Below are positions 3,836-59,226 of a stretch of DNA of 64,000 bases, one piece after another. Below the pieces are notes generated by a model. It had not been told where the DNA came from. It saw nothing but the letters and a program-made list of their open reading frames with translations, and made no database searches. Origin of the DNA: a bacterium. Lineage in GTDB: Bacteria; Patescibacteriota; Minisyncoccia; Minisyncoccales; CG1-02-41-26. Within the stretch, counting starts at the first letter, position 1, and the number at the start of each line of letters is the position of its first letter. Where the stretch lies: positions 203-64,202 of the forward strand of contig JAUXAO010000004.1 of NCBI GenBank assembly GCA_030619905.1, read 5' to 3'. The position numbers were made by a program, and so were the translations under genes.

Positions 3836-4570
3836 ATGACAAACAAAACACAAAAACTAATAGGCATAAAGGATCTATTGCGAAATTCTTGGAATATCTA
3901 TAAAAAGGATTTCAAGAAGTTTTTAGTAATTGCGGTTATCTTTTTTGGAATCACCAGTTTAATGATGACCTTTATCGGCCTGGAAATTCCTCAAATTCCC
4001 GAAGCGAAAGTCCAGCCTGCGCCTACTCCTACTTTTACTTTTATGCCCACCAGAGCTGAACCACTTTTTACTGTGCCCTGGTATTTGTTCTTCCTTATTA
4101 TTTTAACTACTTTCTTCATTAGTATCTGGGGAAATGCTTCTCTTATCTCTGCGATTAAAGAAGTTCCTAAAGATTGGAAAGTTAAGAGTGCACTTAAAGA
4201 AGGTTGGTCTAAATATTGGCCTTTCTTTTTGGTTTCTCTATTAACTGGGCTGGTCGTTGGGTTGGGATTTCTGCTTTTAATAATTCCCGGTGTTATTTTT
4301 GCTGTCTGGTTTGTTTTTTCTGCTTACATAGTCATCTGCGAAGACAAAAGAGGATTTAAAGCCCTTTCCAGAAGCAGACAATTAGTTAAAGGATACTGGT
4401 GGCCGACAGCCAAGCGAGTTTATGCTGTAATGATTATTGTCATTCCTCTTTCTCTGGGCGCCCAATTTATTCCTTATCTTGGTCAGTTTGCCTATCTGAT
4501 TCTCTTTACTCCATTTTTTATAATTTACAACTATCTCATCTACCAAAATCTTAAAGAAATAAAAGGTTAA
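3836..4570 (+). CDS. polytopic membrane protein
   Basis: 244-aa ORF with several long hydrophobic helices. Abuts the next gene (stop TAA then ATG). Confidence 0.65.
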   Translation: MTNKTQKLIGIKDLLRNSWNIYKKDFKKFLVIAVIFFGITSLMMTFIGLEIPQIPEAKVQPAPTPTFTFMPTRAEPLFTVPWYLFFLIILTTFFISIWGNASLISAIKEVPKDWKVKSALKEGWSKYWPFFLVSLLTGLVVGLGFLLLIIPGVIFAVWFVFSAYIVICEDKRGFKALSRSRQLVKGYWWPTAKRVYAVMIIVIPLSLGAQFIPYLGQFAYLILFTPFFIIYNYLIYQNLKEIKG

Positions 4571-19423: not shown

Positions 19424-19451
19424 TTGACAAAATTTTAGGGTTTGCTATAAT
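19424..19451 (+). promoter_or_regulatory. promoter TTGACA-N16-TGcTATAAT embedded in a 9-bp inverted repeat
   Basis: TTGACA at 19424..19429 and TATAAT at 19446..19451. TTGTCAAAT (19405..19413) and ATTTGACAA (19422..19430) form a perfect inverted repeat. Confidence 0.6.
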
Positions 19452-19457
19452 ATGTTT

Positions 19458-19576
19458 GATAATAGTATGGCAGAATTGCTATACTATTTTTATTATAAAA
19501 AGACACCTGTGGGTGCCTGAATTGGATTAATTTCCATCCTCCTTCGGGTACCCGCAAGTGTCCTTTTTTATTTTTT
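19458..19576 (+). ncRNA. candidate small RNA (about 120 nt) ending in a long hairpin plus U-tract
   Basis: Sits downstream of the 19424 promoter. 16-bp stem 19502..19517 / 19547..19562 (1 mismatch, 2 G-U), 27-nt loop exposing CCTCCTT (19538..19544), then T6-A-T6. Confidence 0.4.
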
Positions 19577-38418: not shown

Positions 38419-39294
38419 ATGAAAAAGAATATTATGAAAAAGAATATTCCTCCTTTCATAGGAATAATTATAATTCTGGTAATTTCAATTCCAATGATTC
38501 TTTATCTTATTGGTTTAGCAAGTTCTTTTGAAGAAATTTCTAAAACTGAAGATGGATTACAGAAAAAAGATATAAAGTATTTTTTCGGAAATGATTATTA
38601 TCCTATTCTGGAGGAGGAAAGCACATATGATTGTGATCTTGAGATGGATATTTCTACAGTTGAGAAAACAGTTTCTCTTAATATAAAATGTAATGTAACT
38701 CCTCCTTTTTCAGCTATTGAGGCATTTTTAGCTGTTGTTAGGGGGGATATTGAAACTAAAGGAGTAATTTATTATAGCGGAGTGGATGAAAACGATGACG
38801 AAAAGGAAGCGATTAAAAAAAGATTAGAGATAATAGATTATCCTTTTTTTGCAGTGAGCGAAGAAGAAGAAATTACAGAGGAAACAAGTCTTTGTTTTTT
38901 ACCCTGTATTGATGGTTTGCCGCCTTCTTCTTTTGATGTTTTAAACGTTGATTATAGTCCAAGTAGAAACTATCTTTCCAATCTTTTTGATAATTATGAC
39001 GAAGAGGAATTTAAAAAACTCATTGTTTCTTCAAATTATTCTCTAGAATTTTATTATGAAAACATGGAAGAGAAATTTGAGTGGAGATATCTTTTTGGTC
39101 AGTTTGATGTAGGTGAATTTAATCTTGAGATAACTTTTGATAAACCAATAAAAGAAATTAAATGTGAAAGAGAAGATATTGAGCCATTAAATAAAATTCC
39201 TTTGTTTGATTGTGAAGTTGACAAGATAGATGAGAAATCTTTTAGCGTAAAAGGATTTGCCACTGGTTTAGATAAATTAATAGCCATATGGTAG
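38419..39294 (+). CDS. hypothetical membrane-anchored extracytoplasmic protein
   Basis: 291-aa ORF with an N-terminal TM. No family recognised. Confidence 0.6.
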   Translation: MKKNIMKKNIPPFIGIIIILVISIPMILYLIGLASSFEEISKTEDGLQKKDIKYFFGNDYYPILEEESTYDCDLEMDISTVEKTVSLNIKCNVTPPFSAIEAFLAVVRGDIETKGVIYYSGVDENDDEKEAIKKRLEIIDYPFFAVSEEEEITEETSLCFLPCIDGLPPSSFDVLNVDYSPSRNYLSNLFDNYDEEEFKKLIVSSNYSLEFYYENMEEKFEWRYLFGQFDVGEFNLEITFDKPIKEIKCEREDIEPLNKIPLFDCEVDKIDEKSFSVKGFATGLDKLIAIW

Positions 39295-40379
39295 ATATAA
39301 AATTTAAGATAATTTTAATTGTATTTTTCAGCTTGGTTATTTTAACTATTTCTATCCCGGAAGCAGAAGCATTAATTGTAAGCTCTGGAGGTTCTTGTGG
39401 TCCTTATACCTGTCAGTGTAGGAATATTTTTGGAGTAGTAGCTTGTCGGGCTACTTGCAACAGTTCTAGTTGTGGTGCTCGTTGTAAATGCGGGTTTCTT
39501 GAATCGAAATGTGAAGTTCTTTGGTGCAGCCAACCTTATCATACCTGTATTAATGATGTTCACTATTTTAATCCTCAATGTAGCTCTATTTCTTGGGCAA
39601 GCGGGATAAGATGTGGATACACACAGAGAGAACCTTGTACTGATTATTGGACAGATAATTACCGCTGTTCTGGTTCTTATTTGCAAAGGTTGTATATTGA
39701 AAGAATTTGCGGGCGTAGTGCTTGTATAGACTATGAGACTTGGAAAAATTATGATTATTGTGGAAGTGATTATTGTGGCAGTTGGAGCAGTAATTATTGT
39801 AAGGATAATGATGTTTATCATAATAGAACTTGTCATGATAGAGGATGTTCAAGCAGATCTTGTTATGACAATGTTTATACCCAGGAAGAAAAAGTTGAGG
39901 AATGTGACAATAGCAGCTGGACTGACGAATACCGCTGTTCTGGTGACTGGAGACAGAGGAAATGGATAAATAGAGGTTGTTCAGCTGGTTCTTGTTATGC
40001 AACAGAAGAATGGAAGAATTATCAGGACTGTAAAGCGACTTGTTTTCCAAGTGTTTTAGGCCAAGGATGTCAAGGAGGAACTTATATCTGTAAAGACGGG
40101 ACGTGTGGTTTTCCTCTTCAGTCTTGCAGTCCTCCTTTATATACTAGTTCAGGTGTAGTCTGTGAATGTAATATTGAACAAGGGACGATAATTAAGGCCT
40201 GTAATGGGTTAGGGGCCTGCCTTAATGTAGAAGAAAAATGTGATGTTGATTGCGGAGCAGATTTATTTTGTCAGGGATTAAAACCAGAAGATGAATATCC
40301 TGGAGATCCATCTAAAATCTGTTGTAAAGGAGAAGAAGTACCTCTTCCTTTACCTAAATGGTATGAATTAGGTCCGTAA
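39288..40379 (+). CDS. cysteine-rich secreted protein with an internally repeated Cys module
   Basis: Signal peptide. Repeats CTDYWTDNYRCSGSYLQRLYIERICGRSACIDYETWKNYDYC and CDNSSWTDEYRCSGDWRQRKWINRGCSAGSCYATEEWKNYQDC. Confidence 0.7.
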   Translation: MVDIKFKIILIVFFSLVILTISIPEAEALIVSSGGSCGPYTCQCRNIFGVVACRATCNSSSCGARCKCGFLESKCEVLWCSQPYHTCINDVHYFNPQCSSISWASGIRCGYTQREPCTDYWTDNYRCSGSYLQRLYIERICGRSACIDYETWKNYDYCGSDYCGSWSSNYCKDNDVYHNRTCHDRGCSSRSCYDNVYTQEEKVEECDNSSWTDEYRCSGDWRQRKWINRGCSAGSCYATEEWKNYQDCKATCFPSVLGQGCQGGTYICKDGTCGFPLQSCSPPLYTSSGVVCECNIEQGTIIKACNGLGACLNVEEKCDVDCGADLFCQGLKPEDEYPGDPSKICCKGEEVPLPLPKWYELGP

Positions 40380-41275: not shown

Positions 41276-41310
41276 GAATTTTGTTTTTTATAAAATCTTG
41301 CATTACTTTT

Positions 41311-42384
41311 ATGGAAAAAATTCAGTTCCCAATTGTTAAAACTAAAATCAAAGGAATAACACAGAAATTTGATTTATCTGATCCCAAAGAAAGGGAATCT
41401 TATTTTGAATTGAAAGCAGGGAAAGAAATCAAGAAACTCAGGGATTATTTAAAGGAAAAAACTTTTATTGCTTATCTTTTAGGGAAAAAGAATTCCGGTA
41501 AAGGAACCTATGCTAAAATGTTTAGAGAAATAGTGGATAAAGACAGGATAGAACATTTTTCTCTTGGTGATGCAGTAAGACAACTTGATTTAGTTATTAG
41601 AGACGAAGAGAAGAAAAAAGAATTGATTTTATTTTTGGAGAAAAATTATAGAGGATATCTATCTCCTGAACAAATAATTTCTACTTTAAAAAAAAGAAGT
41701 ACTACATCCCTTCTGTCTTCTGAACTAGTCTTGACTCTGACAAAAATGGAGATAGCAAAAAGAGGAAAGAAAGCCTTTTTTATTGATGGCTTTCCTAGAA
41801 GCTTGGATCAGGTTTCTTACTCATTATTTTTTCGCGAATTAGTTGATTACCGGGAAGACCCAGATGTTTTTATTTTAATTAATGTCCCAAAAGCAGTGAT
41901 TGATGAGAGAATTAAATGGAGAAGAGTTTGCCCTAAATGCCAGACTTCTAGAAATCTTAAATTACTTCCTACTTCAAAGGTAGGTTATGACGAAAAAAAC
42001 AAGGAGTTCTATTTAATCTGTGATAATCCTAGTTGCAAAGGAGAAAGGATGATTTCAAAAGAGGGGGATAAATTAGGGAATGAGCTGATTAAAGAAAGAT
42101 TAGAGATGGATGAAAAATTAATGAGAAAAGCTTTTTCTTTATATGGAATTCCAAAGATTCTTTTAAGAAATTGTATTCCAGTGGAAAAAGCAGCAGAATG
42201 TGTTGATGATTACGAAATTACCCCCGAATATGATTATAAATGGCTTCCAGAAAATTCTGAGGTAAAAACAATTGAAAAACTATGGCAGGTTTCCGATGAC
42301 GAGGGAACTACTTCTTATAGTTTATTAGCAGCTCCGGTTGCAATTTCTTTAATAAAACAAATGGTTAAGGTTCTAAATCTCTAA
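41311..42384 (+). CDS. adenylate-kinase-family nucleoside monophosphate kinase paralog with Cys4 LID and N-terminal extension
   Basis: P-loop LLGKKNSGKGTYA, FFIDGFPRS, LID CPKCQTSRN...CDNPSCKG. The track TTG start 41281 was replaced by ATG 41311. Confidence 0.7.
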   Translation: MEKIQFPIVKTKIKGITQKFDLSDPKERESYFELKAGKEIKKLRDYLKEKTFIAYLLGKKNSGKGTYAKMFREIVDKDRIEHFSLGDAVRQLDLVIRDEEKKKELILFLEKNYRGYLSPEQIISTLKKRSTTSLLSSELVLTLTKMEIAKRGKKAFFIDGFPRSLDQVSYSLFFRELVDYREDPDVFILINVPKAVIDERIKWRRVCPKCQTSRNLKLLPTSKVGYDEKNKEFYLICDNPSCKGERMISKEGDKLGNELIKERLEMDEKLMRKAFSLYGIPKILLRNCIPVEKAAECVDDYEITPEYDYKWLPENSEVKTIEKLWQVSDDEGTTSYSLLAAPVAISLIKQMVKVLNL

Positions 42385-42402: not shown

Positions 42403-42432
42403 TTGACAAACGTTTTCAAGAAATTATATAAT
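42403..42432 (+). promoter_or_regulatory. consensus promoter TTGACA-N18-TATAAT
   Basis: TTGACA at 42403..42408 and TATAAT at 42427..42432. No ORF follows. Confidence 0.7.
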
Positions 42433-42437
42433 TAAAG

Positions 42438-42574
42438 AGGCCTCATCCTTTCCGATTAGATTCTTAGACAAAGATTCATTACAGGGATTCAAATTTGCTG
42501 GACGTAACGTTCAGCGTGAGACTCCCGACTTAGATTCATTTCTGAGATCAGCGGATAAAAGATGAGGCCTTTTG
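42438..42574 (+). ncRNA. structured rod-shaped small RNA, 6S-like candidate
   Basis: 10-bp closing helix AGGCCTCATC / GATGAGGCCT (42438..47 / 42561..70) followed by TTTT. The hand fold gives further helices, a large two-sided internal loop and an apical 8-bp hairpin GCTGGACG-TAA-CGTTCAGC. GC-rich relative to surroundings. Confidence 0.45.
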
Positions 42575-42619
42575 GTTTCCAGAACCAAAAAAGCGTGCCA
42601 AAGATGACGCGTTTTTGAT

Positions 42620-42691
42620 TCGGGGTGTTGGGAGTCGCACCCAAGTCACAGGACCCCCAGCCCTGCATAATAACTGTTATACTACACCCCG
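42620..42691 (-). tRNA. tRNA-Pro (anticodon GGG), CCA not encoded
   Basis: Minus-strand sequence CGGGGTG TA GTATAACAGTTATTAT G CAGGG-CTGGGGG-TCCTG TGAC TTGGG-TGCGACT-CCCAA CACCCCG A. 7-bp acceptor, 5-bp anticodon and T stems, G37. The D and T loops are non-canonical. Confidence 0.75.
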
Positions 42692-57248: not shown

Positions 57249-58532
57249 ATGATCTGGTATCAAAAATTACTTCTCGTTTTTAAAGACCGCCAACTTCGGA
57301 ACAAGATACTTTTTGTTTTGTTCATCTTCGTTGTTTTTCGTTTGGCTGCTAATATTCCTATTCCAGGAATAGATACAGAAAATTTGCAGAGGTTTTTTAG
57401 CCAGAGTCAAATCTTCGGACTTTTAAATCTTTTTAGTGGAGGAGCATTGAGCCGACTTTCTATTGTGATGCTGGGTTTAGGGCCGTATATTACGGCTACC
57501 ATTATTTTACAATTATTGACAATGATTTTTCCTGCCTTTGAGAAGTTGTATAAAGAAGAGGGAGAGGAAGGACGTCAGAAATTTAATCAGTATGCCAGAA
57601 TGGCAACGGTTCCTTTAGGTGCTCTCCAGGGCTATGCCATGTTGGCTTTATTCCAAAGTCAGGGAATAATTAGTTCTATTCCTCCATTATTGCTTTTAAC
57701 TTCAATTTTGACTATTACTTGTGGAGCTGTGTTCTTAATGTGGCTGGGGGAATTAATTTCAGAGAGAGGAATTGGTAATGGTGTTTCTCTTTTGATTTTT
57801 GCTGGTATTGTAGCCAGAACACCAATGGAGATTAGAAACATCGCTCTTACTTGGGACCCAGTTAATATTCCTTCTTATATTTTATTTCTGGCTGTAGCTC
57901 TGATTATTATTACAGGAGTAGTTATGGTTAATGAGGCTCGGAGGAATATTCCTGTTTCTTACGCTAAGAGGGTAAGAGGGATGAAAATGTATGGTGGTTT
58001 TTCCACTTATCTGCCTATTAATATTAATCCGGCCGGAGTAATACCAATTATATTTGCTTTAAGTATCATGCTTTTTCCTGGAATGATTGCTAATTTTCTT
58101 TCTGGAACTGGAAATCAAATGTTGGCTGGTTTTGCTCAAGGAATTAATAACTTTTTACAAAATGCATGGGTTTACGGAATTTCCTATTTCGCATTAGTTT
58201 TCCTTTTTACCTATTTTTATACAGCTGTTACTTTTGATCCCAAAACAATTGCTAACAATCTCCAGAAAATGGGAGGATTTATTCCGGGTATTCGACCGGG
58301 TACTTCTACAGCTGGATTTTTACATCGTATTTTATATAAGATTCTTTTTATCGGGGCAACATTTTTAGGAACAATTGCCGTTATGCCTTCTATTATCCAG
58401 GGGACAACTGGCATAGGAGCTTTTCAATTTTTAATTGGAGGAACAGCTCTCTTGATTATGGTTAGTGTTGTTTTGGATATGTGGAGGCAGATTAAAGCTC
58501 AAATGGAAATGAGAGAATATGAAAAATTCTAA
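57249..58532 (+). CDS. secY: preprotein translocase subunit SecY
   Basis: 10-TM layout. FSGGALSRLSIVMLGLGPYITA, GELISERGIGNGVSL. Confidence 0.97.
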   Translation: MIWYQKLLLVFKDRQLRNKILFVLFIFVVFRLAANIPIPGIDTENLQRFFSQSQIFGLLNLFSGGALSRLSIVMLGLGPYITATIILQLLTMIFPAFEKLYKEEGEEGRQKFNQYARMATVPLGALQGYAMLALFQSQGIISSIPPLLLLTSILTITCGAVFLMWLGELISERGIGNGVSLLIFAGIVARTPMEIRNIALTWDPVNIPSYILFLAVALIIITGVVMVNEARRNIPVSYAKRVRGMKMYGGFSTYLPININPAGVIPIIFALSIMLFPGMIANFLSGTGNQMLAGFAQGINNFLQNAWVYGISYFALVFLFTYFYTAVTFDPKTIANNLQKMGGFIPGIRPGTSTAGFLHRILYKILFIGATFLGTIAVMPSIIQGTTGIGAFQFLIGGTALLIMVSVVLDMWRQIKAQMEMREYEKF

Positions 58533-59226
58533 AAGCAAAAAACTAGTCATAATTTTATTAGGACCTCCTGGGTCGGGAAAAGGGACTCAGGCCGAACTTT
58601 TGGCTGAAAAATTGGACTTATATTATCTTGAAACGAGTAAAATTCTTGAAGAAGCCTTTAATAAATCTAAAAAAGGAGAGTTTATTAAAATTAGTGGCAA
58701 AAAATACTTTTTTTCTCGAGAAGAAAATCTTTGGAAAAAAGGAATTCTCTGCACTCCCTCTTTTGTCAGTTATTTAGTCAAAAGAAAAATAAAGAAACTT
58801 GGTGGAAAGAATGAAAGTCTAGTAATAGCCGGTTCTCCCAGAACGCTTTATGAAGGTAAGACAATAATACCGCTTTTGGAAAAATTGTATGGCAAAAGAA
58901 ATATTAGAATTATTTTAATCCAGGTTTCAGCTAAAGAATCCATTTTCAGAAATTCTCATAGGCGGATTTGTGAATTAATGCGTCATCCAATTTTATACTC
59001 AAAAGAAACAAAAAAACTTAAGTTTTGTCCTTTAGACGGTTCAAAATTAATTAGAAGAAAAGGACTTGATGATCCAAAGACTATAAAAATCCGGTTGAAA
59101 GAATATAGAGAAAAAACACTTCCGTTAGTCAAATATTTAGAAGAAAGAAGATTAAAAGTAAAGAAAATTAATGGTGAAAGTTCAGTATCTAAAATTTTTG
59201 AAAGAATTTTGAAAACATTAAAATAA
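58519..59226 (+). CDS. adk: adenylate kinase
   Basis: LLGPPGSGKGTQAELLA. Position after secY. Confidence 0.93.
   Translation: MKNSKSKKLVIILLGPPGSGKGTQAELLAEKLDLYYLETSKILEEAFNKSKKGEFIKISGKKYFFSREENLWKKGILCTPSFVSYLVKRKIKKLGGKNESLVIAGSPRTLYEGKTIIPLLEKLYGKRNIRIILIQVSAKESIFRNSHRRICELMRHPILYSKETKKLKFCPLDGSKLIRRKGLDDPKTIKIRLKEYREKTLPLVKYLEERRLKVKKINGESSVSKIFERILKTLK

Follow-up and report, generated by a model that had tools for sequence, protein, structure and literature searches.

A probable miniaturised 6S RNA gene of the Parcubacteria: promoter, conserved rod and relation to the 6S consensus

Introduction

What is transcribed by a consensus promoter that fires into a stretch of DNA without an open reading frame, between a gene of the adenylate kinase family and a convergent tRNA gene? 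The question is raised by a locus at positions 42403-42574 of a 64-kb stretch of bacterial DNA (referred to as the window, that is, the whole stretch analysed). The window has a GC content of about 33%, and the best relatives of the flanking proteins were found in Patescibacteria, Paceibacteria, and Nealsonbacteria genomes. An initial annotation had proposed a rod-shaped RNA with a central bubble and, from this architecture, a 6S-like candidate. 6S RNAs mimic an open promoter, with a -10-like element in the 3' bubble strand and a -35-like region in the apical arm (PMC8876501, PMC9670815). Their 5' bubble strand and downstream helix serve as the template for a product RNA, the synthesis of which refolds the 6S RNA and frees the polymerase (PMC8876501, PMC9670815).

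Results

Features of the locus

The following features were mapped along the locus and at the second adenylate-kinase-family gene of the window (window coordinates, strand, description):

41281-42384, plus strand: adenylate-kinase-family paralogue of 367 aa (Pfam ADK), the conserved upstream neighbour of the rod RNA
42403-42432, plus strand: sigma70-type promoter (-35 box TTGACA at 42403-08, 18-nt spacer, -10 box TATAAT at 42427-32; 12/12 match)
42437-42571, plus strand: mature rod of the proposed mini-6S RNA, 135 nt
42561-42573, plus strand: 3' strand of stem P1 followed by UUUU (42570-73), a possible rod-as-terminator end
42572-42617, no strand assigned: two hairpins between the RNA and the convergent tRNA, in the same arrangement in homologues
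42620-42691, minus strand: tRNA-Pro(GGG), a convergent syntenic neighbour, separate from the rod RNA
58519-59226, plus strand: canonical adk, 235 aa, following secY in the ribosomal-protein cluster

Perfect sigma70 promoters occur twice in the 64-kb window, against 0.07 expected, and the promoter at 42403-42432 is one of the two. No open reading frame of at least 30 aa was found on the plus strand over 42437-42571, so that the perfect promoter firing into an ORF-free stretch was seen as it had been described. The other perfect promoter (TTGACA-N16-TATAAT, 19424-19451, plus strand) is likewise followed by about 116 nt without an open reading frame (19457-19572, plus strand), a stretch that ends in a U-run, folds as two strong hairpins (-51.6 kcal/mol, z = -8.9), and has no Rfam match; it is a candidate for a second small RNA. 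Further TTGACA boxes lie past this stretch, at about 19597, 19619, and 19659.

The upstream paralogue differs from the canonical enzyme encoded in the ribosomal-protein cluster by N- and C-terminal extensions, and it carries four invariant cysteines. More than 4000 relatives were detected, the best 120 of which are 65-91% identical. Further upstream lie a cysteine-rich protein of 363 aa with an N-terminal hydrophobic segment (39288-40379, plus strand) and, preceding it, a protein of 291 aa (38419-39294, plus strand); neither gave a Pfam match.

Fold of the predicted transcript

Positions 42436-42576 were folded with RNAfold and gave a rod of -52.4 kcal/mol (z = -5.59), as good a value being obtained with none of 200 shuffles. 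The rod is made up of the following elements, with helix statistics from the homologues treated in the next section:

42437-42447 / 42561-42571, plus strand: closing stem P1, 11 bp (helix 1; 98.9% paired, with compensatory changes)
42451-42457, partner 42550-42555, plus strand: 5' strand of P2, UCCG plus UU (helices 2 and 3, which covary)
42459-42468 / 42541-42549, plus strand: downstream helix (DH), GAU-CUUAGA / UCUGAG-AUC (helix 4), adjoining the bubble
42469-42483, plus strand: 5' strand of the central bubble, CAAAGAUUCAUUACA, unpaired in the family consensus
42484-42526, plus strand: apical arm, consisting of clamp helix, internal loop, and a hairpin (42496-42516) with variable loop
42527-42540, plus strand: 3' strand of the central bubble, '-10-like'
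42522-42534, plus strand: 6S signature where the apical arm meets the 3' bubble strand, CUCCC-G-ACUUAGA in the window

Within P2, UCCG (42451-54) pairs with CGGA (42552-55), and in the clamp helix GGGA.UC (42484-90) pairs with GA.UCCC (42520-26). A 9-nt direct repeat, AGATTCATT, stands in both bubble strands (42472-80 and 42532-40). The rod drawn by hand in the initial annotation was recovered with its helices, two-sided loop, repeats, apical hairpin, and terminal UUUU in place; only the length of P1, drawn with 10 bp, had to be corrected to 11. The central bubble was confirmed at 42469-42483 and 42527-42540, and the few pairs that the minimum-free-energy fold places inside it are not kept in relatives.

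Homologues and covariation

Homologues were collected with the 367-aa adenylate-kinase-family neighbour as an anchor, which gave 80 loci from species-representative genomes. With nhmmer, an RNA was found directly behind the kinase gene in 12 loci, each copy folding as a rod of 133-144 nt. A first covariance model (R1), built from seven sequences, retrieved full-length copies in 58 loci and in the window, where it scored 43 bits; the second-generation model (R2) added five more loci, for a total of 63 of the 80. The window RNA matches R2 with 61.8 bits (E 2.9e-14). The copies are 122-147 nt long (median 137) and lie almost always 40-200 nt 3' of the kinase gene on the same strand, a position kept across species-level genomes whose neighbours are 61-76% identical.

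In the alignment of 59 rows, 92.3% of the cells at paired positions are paired, and double changes occur at 33 of the 34 pairs, including all eight pairs of the downstream helix; in the apical arm (helices 5 and 6), 96.3% pairing goes together with strong covariation. The covariation score was 0.585, compared with 0.06-0.135 when the partners were slid by one to three columns, and none of 500 shuffles reached any of the covariation or pairing measures. Lack of covariation in homologous loci had been named beforehand as an observation that would speak against the rod; the 59 homologues gave the opposite result. Plain MAFFT alignment of 13 divergent members yielded a poor RNAalifold structure and was replaced by a seven-sequence subgroup, for which MAFFT and RNAalifold returned the same 34 pairs, and by alignments from the covariance model. 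Single-sequence folds, which are independent of any alignment, recovered on average 76% of the model pairs, with a mean z of -5.5. Scores of the reverse complements were far lower, and the RNA strand is thereby defined. Sequence conservation is concentrated in the bubble strands in the middle of the rod, and the apical loops vary (UAA, UGAG, CUUG, CGUG, and others).

These observations bear on two simpler explanations. Long inverted repeats are common in intergenic DNA, and the rod might be a palindromic repeat, the remnant of a mobile element, or a chance hairpin in AT-rich sequence. Such an origin is hardly credible for an element that is single-copy in the window (other R2 matches 18 bits or less), that keeps its position across species-level genomes, and in which compensatory changes preserve the pairing while the loops stay asymmetric and strand-specific; it was ruled out on covariation and synteny. 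A divergent RNA of the signal recognition particle (4.5S), which likewise has a promoter and forms a rod of about 110 nt, would have a similar size and a hairpin-like shape, and a search of the 64-kb window gave no SRP RNA at any other place. No SRP family matched at E <= 10, however, the apical loop and hairpin vary freely where an SRP RNA would carry its universally conserved GNRA tetraloop and the symmetric and asymmetric internal loops to which Ffh binds, and conservation lies in the central bubble instead. The initial annotation had already remarked that SRP motifs are absent, which the variable apical loop of the whole family bears out; with an apical hairpin that covaries as a plain helix, an SRP RNA was rejected as extremely improbable. 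With its own promoter, the locus is a real gene, and it encodes a structured RNA that is conserved in ultra-small Parcubacteria.

No divergent copy and no canonical 6S RNA was found beside the kinase gene in the 17 kinase-anchored loci that R2 does not match; some of these loci are rearranged, masked, or cut. Two of these loci, L036 (titled Gribaldobacteria; about 4190-4260) and L052 (about 4200-4400), have no mini-6S RNA and carry a TTGACA box of their own after the kinase gene. The region following the kinase gene contains a 40-nt G+C-rich hairpin element, GGCGTCG..TTAGTA.GAGTTCCTCCCTAA.TGCGACGCC, which occurs twice in L052.

Boundaries and independence of the transcript

A promoter matching at least nine of the 12 consensus positions precedes the rod in 55 of the 59 homologues, and in 52 of these 55 copies the -10 box ends 4-7 nt ahead of the model start. 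Because this spacing is fixed, the start of the transcript was placed at the first paired base; for the window RNA, the predicted start is the G/A at 42437-42439. Near-consensus promoters in so many copies suggest strong expression of the rod RNA. At the 3' end, many homologues have P1 followed by a U-run, and others have P1 and then a separate terminator made up of A-run, hairpin, and U-run. In the window, the second of the two hairpins downstream (42589-42616; A-run, stem, and U-run) looks like a two-way terminator, and if it is used the primary transcript would be about 180 nt long.

With the rod 40-200 nt behind the kinase stop codon on the same strand, and with P1 and its U-run resembling a terminator, the element might also act in cis, as 3' UTR or terminator of the kinase gene or as leader or riboswitch of a downstream gene. 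This explanation is very improbable. In 55 of 59 copies, a near-consensus promoter belonging to the rod itself stands a fixed distance ahead of the first paired base. The next gene is the convergent tRNA, so that nothing lies downstream for the RNA to regulate in cis; a minus-strand tRNA-Pro(GGG) was found downstream in 30 of 60 RNA-bearing loci. In the L055 genome, the only one with the RNA on the strand opposite to the kinase gene, the copy (4158-4281, minus strand) has been inverted together with an 11/12 promoter at the usual offset, which identifies the rod RNA as an independent transcription unit. Relatives without any kinase gene, described below, also argue against action in cis.

Comparison with the 6S consensus

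At gathering thresholds, Rfam returned only tRNA in the window; with E <= 10 on segments of 401 nt and 151 nt around the RNA, neither the 6S family RF00013 nor any other family was matched. A match to a different Rfam family had been expected to overturn the 6S-like reading, and none appeared at either level. Nine family members searched with E <= 5 likewise matched neither RF00013 nor another family. In the reverse direction, R2 run against E. coli ssrS with filters off gave noise only (3.8 bits or less). The RF00013 gathering score of 46.4 bits is not reached by the window RNA.

The two consensus sequences were compared by structural position, the RF00013 consensus being taken from the alignment of E. 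coli ssrS:

5' bubble strand: RF00013 gAaaauuuuuauaaua (16 nt); family aacAAAcuUUUUUuaa (16 nt)
3' bubble strand: RF00013 ACCUggaAcagCa (13 nt); family ACUUGGAUUuUUuu (14 nt)
End of downstream helix: RF00013 CC; family GG
Start of 3' strand of downstream helix: RF00013 GG; family CC
Start of apical arm: RF00013 GGGag; family GGGAG
End of apical arm: RF00013 gcaCCC; family gaCACCC
'-10-like' junction sequence: RF00013 caCCCACCUggaA; family CACCCACUUGGAU; window CUCCCGACUUAGA

At the junction, the family reads CACCC-ACUUGGA and RF00013 reads caCCC-ACCUggaA, with the motif ACYUGGA in common. The best local alignment of the two consensus strings (AAAGAGGGCACCCACCUGGA and AACGAGGACACCCACUUGGA) is identical at 17 of 20 positions and falls where, in both structures, the apical arm meets the 3' bubble strand; its score was reached anywhere by 45 of 5000 dinucleotide shuffles. 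As measured in the family, the bubble has a 5' strand of 13-15 nt (16 nt with two weak helix-end pairs) and a 3' strand of 10-14 nt. The 6S rod architecture of closing stem, central bubble, and apical stem was recovered in the family by folding, RNAalifold, and covariation (n = 59). A 6S-type length of about 180-200 nt and an extended apical arm were not found: the family RNAs, with 122-147 nt against a model of 187 positions, are indeed shorter than typical 6S RNAs, as had been remarked of the window RNA.

Intermediates from metagenomes

Metagenomes were scanned for the pattern GGGAG-N36-66-CACCCACYTGGA, which gave at least 120 loci. Among the loci listed, 17 are matched by R2, with a kinase gene upstream in five and none in the other 12, and nine RNAs score at the same coordinates with both RF00013 and R2, the one score falling as the other rises; these intermediates were pre-selected with a shared 17-nt motif, by which both scores are somewhat inflated. 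Scores in bits for these nine, and for three RNAs matched by R2 only, are:

L116: R2 25.8, RF00013 80.6
L138: R2 27.1, RF00013 77.8
L173 (158 nt): R2 23.9, RF00013 51.8
L147 (154 nt): R2 35.1, RF00013 50.1
L140: R2 38.2, RF00013 40.9
L112: R2 30.3, RF00013 36.8
L183: R2 46.6, RF00013 32.8
L084: R2 24.8, RF00013 30.9
L163: R2 35.5, RF00013 27.0
L189: R2 64.6, RF00013 none
L083: R2 121, RF00013 none
L187: R2 138, RF00013 none

In the bona fide 6S hits L116 and L138, the junction motif aligns to the same bubble-junction positions of RF00013. L173 and L147 have the short apical spacer of the Parcubacteria family and yet exceed the RF00013 gathering score. Ten pattern-matched loci without an R2 match gave no 6S match either, so that the motif alone drives neither score; these loci, which have long spacers, were set aside as chance matches. 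Relatives that are positive with R2 and have no kinase gene nearby include L105, L111, L140, L183, and L189, and the RNA thus does not depend on the kinase neighbour.

Seven contigs (L140, L183, L112, L189, L105, L111, and L163) encode 6S-type RNAs of 124-175 nt with the same junction motif and no kinase gene in the stretch covered, and some have a GC content of 0.37-0.39; they may encode 6S RNAs of mini or intermediate type from further lineages of the candidate phyla.

A structured small RNA that is specific to the lineage and has no functional relation to 6S, such as a protein scaffold or sponge, perhaps for the kinase paralogue, would resemble 6S RNA only by convergence. The missing direct match to RF00013, a length 50 nt below that of 6S RNA, and the strikingly close linkage to the kinase paralogue, seen in 63 of 80 genomes, fit such an RNA, and conserved bubble strands would be expected of any protein-binding site. 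Against it, the conserved letters are those of the RF00013 consensus at the same structural position, the graded series of RNAs scores with both models and includes two that pass 6S gathering at 154-158 nt, and relatives positive with R2 occur away from the kinase gene. Convergence was consequently judged unlikely.

In the preferred reading, which has a probability of about 0.8, locus 42437-42571 is the ssrS equivalent of a Parcubacteria/Paceibacteria bacterium, the gene for a 6S RNA reduced in size. The 6S-like candidate proposed from architecture is thus borne out by a bubble core that matches the RF00013 consensus and by the metagenomic intermediates that score with both models. Since RF00013 gives no direct match and R2 misses ssrS, the link to 6S is transitive and motif-based rather than direct. 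Homology to 6S RNA is, judged from these sequence comparisons, very probable; that the RNA runs the full canonical 6S cycle is probable to a somewhat lesser degree.

Discussion

Proposed mechanism

By homology with characterised 6S RNAs, the following course may be proposed. The promoter would transcribe the rod of about 135 nt, in which a bubble of about 15 x 14 nt lies between the closing arm and a short apical arm and would be held open by G-C clamps. Bubble and flanks would mimic an open promoter, and the housekeeping sigma factor would read the 3' bubble strand (CCC-ACUUGGA) as a -10-like non-template strand. The mini-6S RNA would sit in the active-site cleft of the sigma70-type holoenzyme and restrain the polymerase. 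Upon a rise of the NTP level, the polymerase would copy a short product RNA (predicted as 5'-GUCUAAGAAUCUAAUCGG for the window and 5'-GUCCCAGAAUCUAAC for the family), starting opposite C42469. Synthesis would unzip the downstream helix, the freed 3' strand of which would pair with the 3' bubble strand (CUUAGA/UCUGAG), and this pairing would release the polymerase.

Polymerase binding, product RNA synthesis, and the release hairpin of the mini-6S RNA are all assigned by analogy. C42469 is the C of the conserved GAC of the family and the presumed start of the product RNA. In B. subtilis 6S-1, position 40 is a C. Product RNA starts at position 40 in 6S-1 (PMC8876501) and, in E. coli 6S RNA, at U44, the third bubble nucleotide of G42 A43 U44 (PMC9670815). 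After these two RNAs, the 5' strand of the downstream helix (42459-42468) would be the template (PMC9670815, PMC8876501).

A release hairpin between the -10 region and the downstream helix (-10:DH) has been described for E. coli 6S RNA (PMC9670815). When the template strand was blocked in silico, UUGGA of the 3' bubble strand paired with UCCAG of the freed downstream-helix strand. A hairpin of at least 4 bp between 3' bubble strand and 3' strand of the downstream helix formed in 34 of 59 members (mean z = -1.4) and was absent in about 40%; that of the window (CUUAGA 42529-34 / UCUGAG 42541-46) has 6 bp, -5.8 kcal/mol, and z = -4.3. Covariation of this hairpin (alignment A6) did not go beyond shuffles (65.9% paired vs. 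65.1% shuffled), and a collapse helix of the B. subtilis type, in which the distal part of the 5' bubble strand would pair with the downstream helix on its 3' side, was not enriched (mean z = -0.28). On these two results, the release step stands as a plausible analogy. The direct repeats in the bubble strands can be explained by the need for two segments to pair with one partner.

Small size does not stand in the way of such a cycle. A B. subtilis 6S-1 RNA truncated to 78 nt binds polymerase, serves as template for product RNA, and is released in vitro (PMC8876501), which makes a natural version of 135 nt mechanistically plausible. As the apical arm is about 26 nt shorter than that of the Rfam model, the -35-like contact may be reduced or absent. 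That the mini-6S RNA, having lost most of the -35-like arm, engages the polymerase differently, and is maybe also functionally coupled to the kinase paralogue, is a speculative extension and rather doubtful. If it were true, engagement might for example be weaker, faster-cycling, or independent of sigma region 4, and nucleotide supply and NTP-dependent polymerase release would form one control module in host-dependent, nucleotide-scavenging bacteria.

Significance

As a 6S RNA, the rod RNA is of a known kind and represents a divergent, miniaturised subfamily that is absent from Rfam 15. To our knowledge, essentially no regulatory RNAs have been described for Parcubacteria, and natural 6S RNAs of 122-147 nt would be the shortest known. 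Literature searches found no paper linking 6S RNA to Parcubacteria. The assignment, if correct, places a global transcription regulator in these ultra-small, host-dependent bacteria of the candidate phyla radiation. The standard Rfam 6S model misses the whole clade, and its genomes are therefore currently annotated as lacking 6S RNA; the family model together with the motif GGGAG-N36-46-CACCCACYUGGA offers a direct remedy. The mini-6S RNA would correspond in nature to the engineered minimal 6S-1 RNAs, and as such it would be a defined system for determining how much of the -35-like arm the mechanism needs. The finding is of use for annotation and for work on the 6S mechanism, and it overturns nothing.

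Comparison with known systems

The mini-6S RNA shares with the bacterial small SRP RNA (4.5S, RF00169) the form of a promoter-driven rod of about 100-140 nt with paired 5' and 3' ends; unlike RF00169, it lacks conserved domain IV loops and a conserved apical tetraloop, is conserved in the mid-rod bubble, and gives no match to the model. 6S-Flavo (RF01685) is a lineage-specific 6S-type RNA outside the general 6S model. The mini-6S RNA resembles 6S-Flavo and the Ms1 RNA of actinobacteria (PMC4191392, PMC9130861) in being a lineage-specific 6S-type RNA missed by that model. Ms1 has about 300 nt and binds core polymerase rather than holoenzyme (PMC4191392, PMC9130861), and neither the RF01685 nor the Ms1 model matched the window RNA (E <= 10) or nine family members (E <= 5).

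With 6S RNA itself (RF00013; E. coli 6S, B. subtilis 6S-1), the family has in common the rod of closing arm, central bubble, and apical arm; a 16-nt A/U-rich 5' bubble strand and a 3' strand of 13-14 nt; a GGG/CCC clamp on the apical side (GGGAG...CACCC) and a near-identical CACCC-ACYUGGA junction; a 3' bubble strand that in 34 of 59 members could fold onto the 3' strand of the downstream helix; a gene of its own under a strong housekeeping promoter; and the intermediates that score with both models. It differs in its length (122-147 nt, median 137, vs. 187 model positions), in its apical arm (43-52 nt, about 47, vs. about 73 model positions), in its closing arm (about 31-33 nt per strand vs. 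about 42), and in not being detected by the RF00013 covariance model. The genomic setting differs as well, the family adjoining the kinase paralogue and tRNA-Pro, unlike E. coli 6S RNA with its neighbours zapA and the gene for 5-formyl-THF cyclo-ligase.

The engineered RNAs 6S78 and 6S82cp are likewise reduced to the bubble and short flanking helices (PMC8876501). They still bind sigmaA polymerase, serve as templates for product RNAs of 14-15 nt, and are released, and they are laboratory constructs with about tenfold lower affinity and no -35-like arm (PMC8876501). The mini-6S RNA, unlike these constructs, is a natural conserved gene, and it retains a closing arm of about 28 bp and an apical arm corresponding to about 20 bp.
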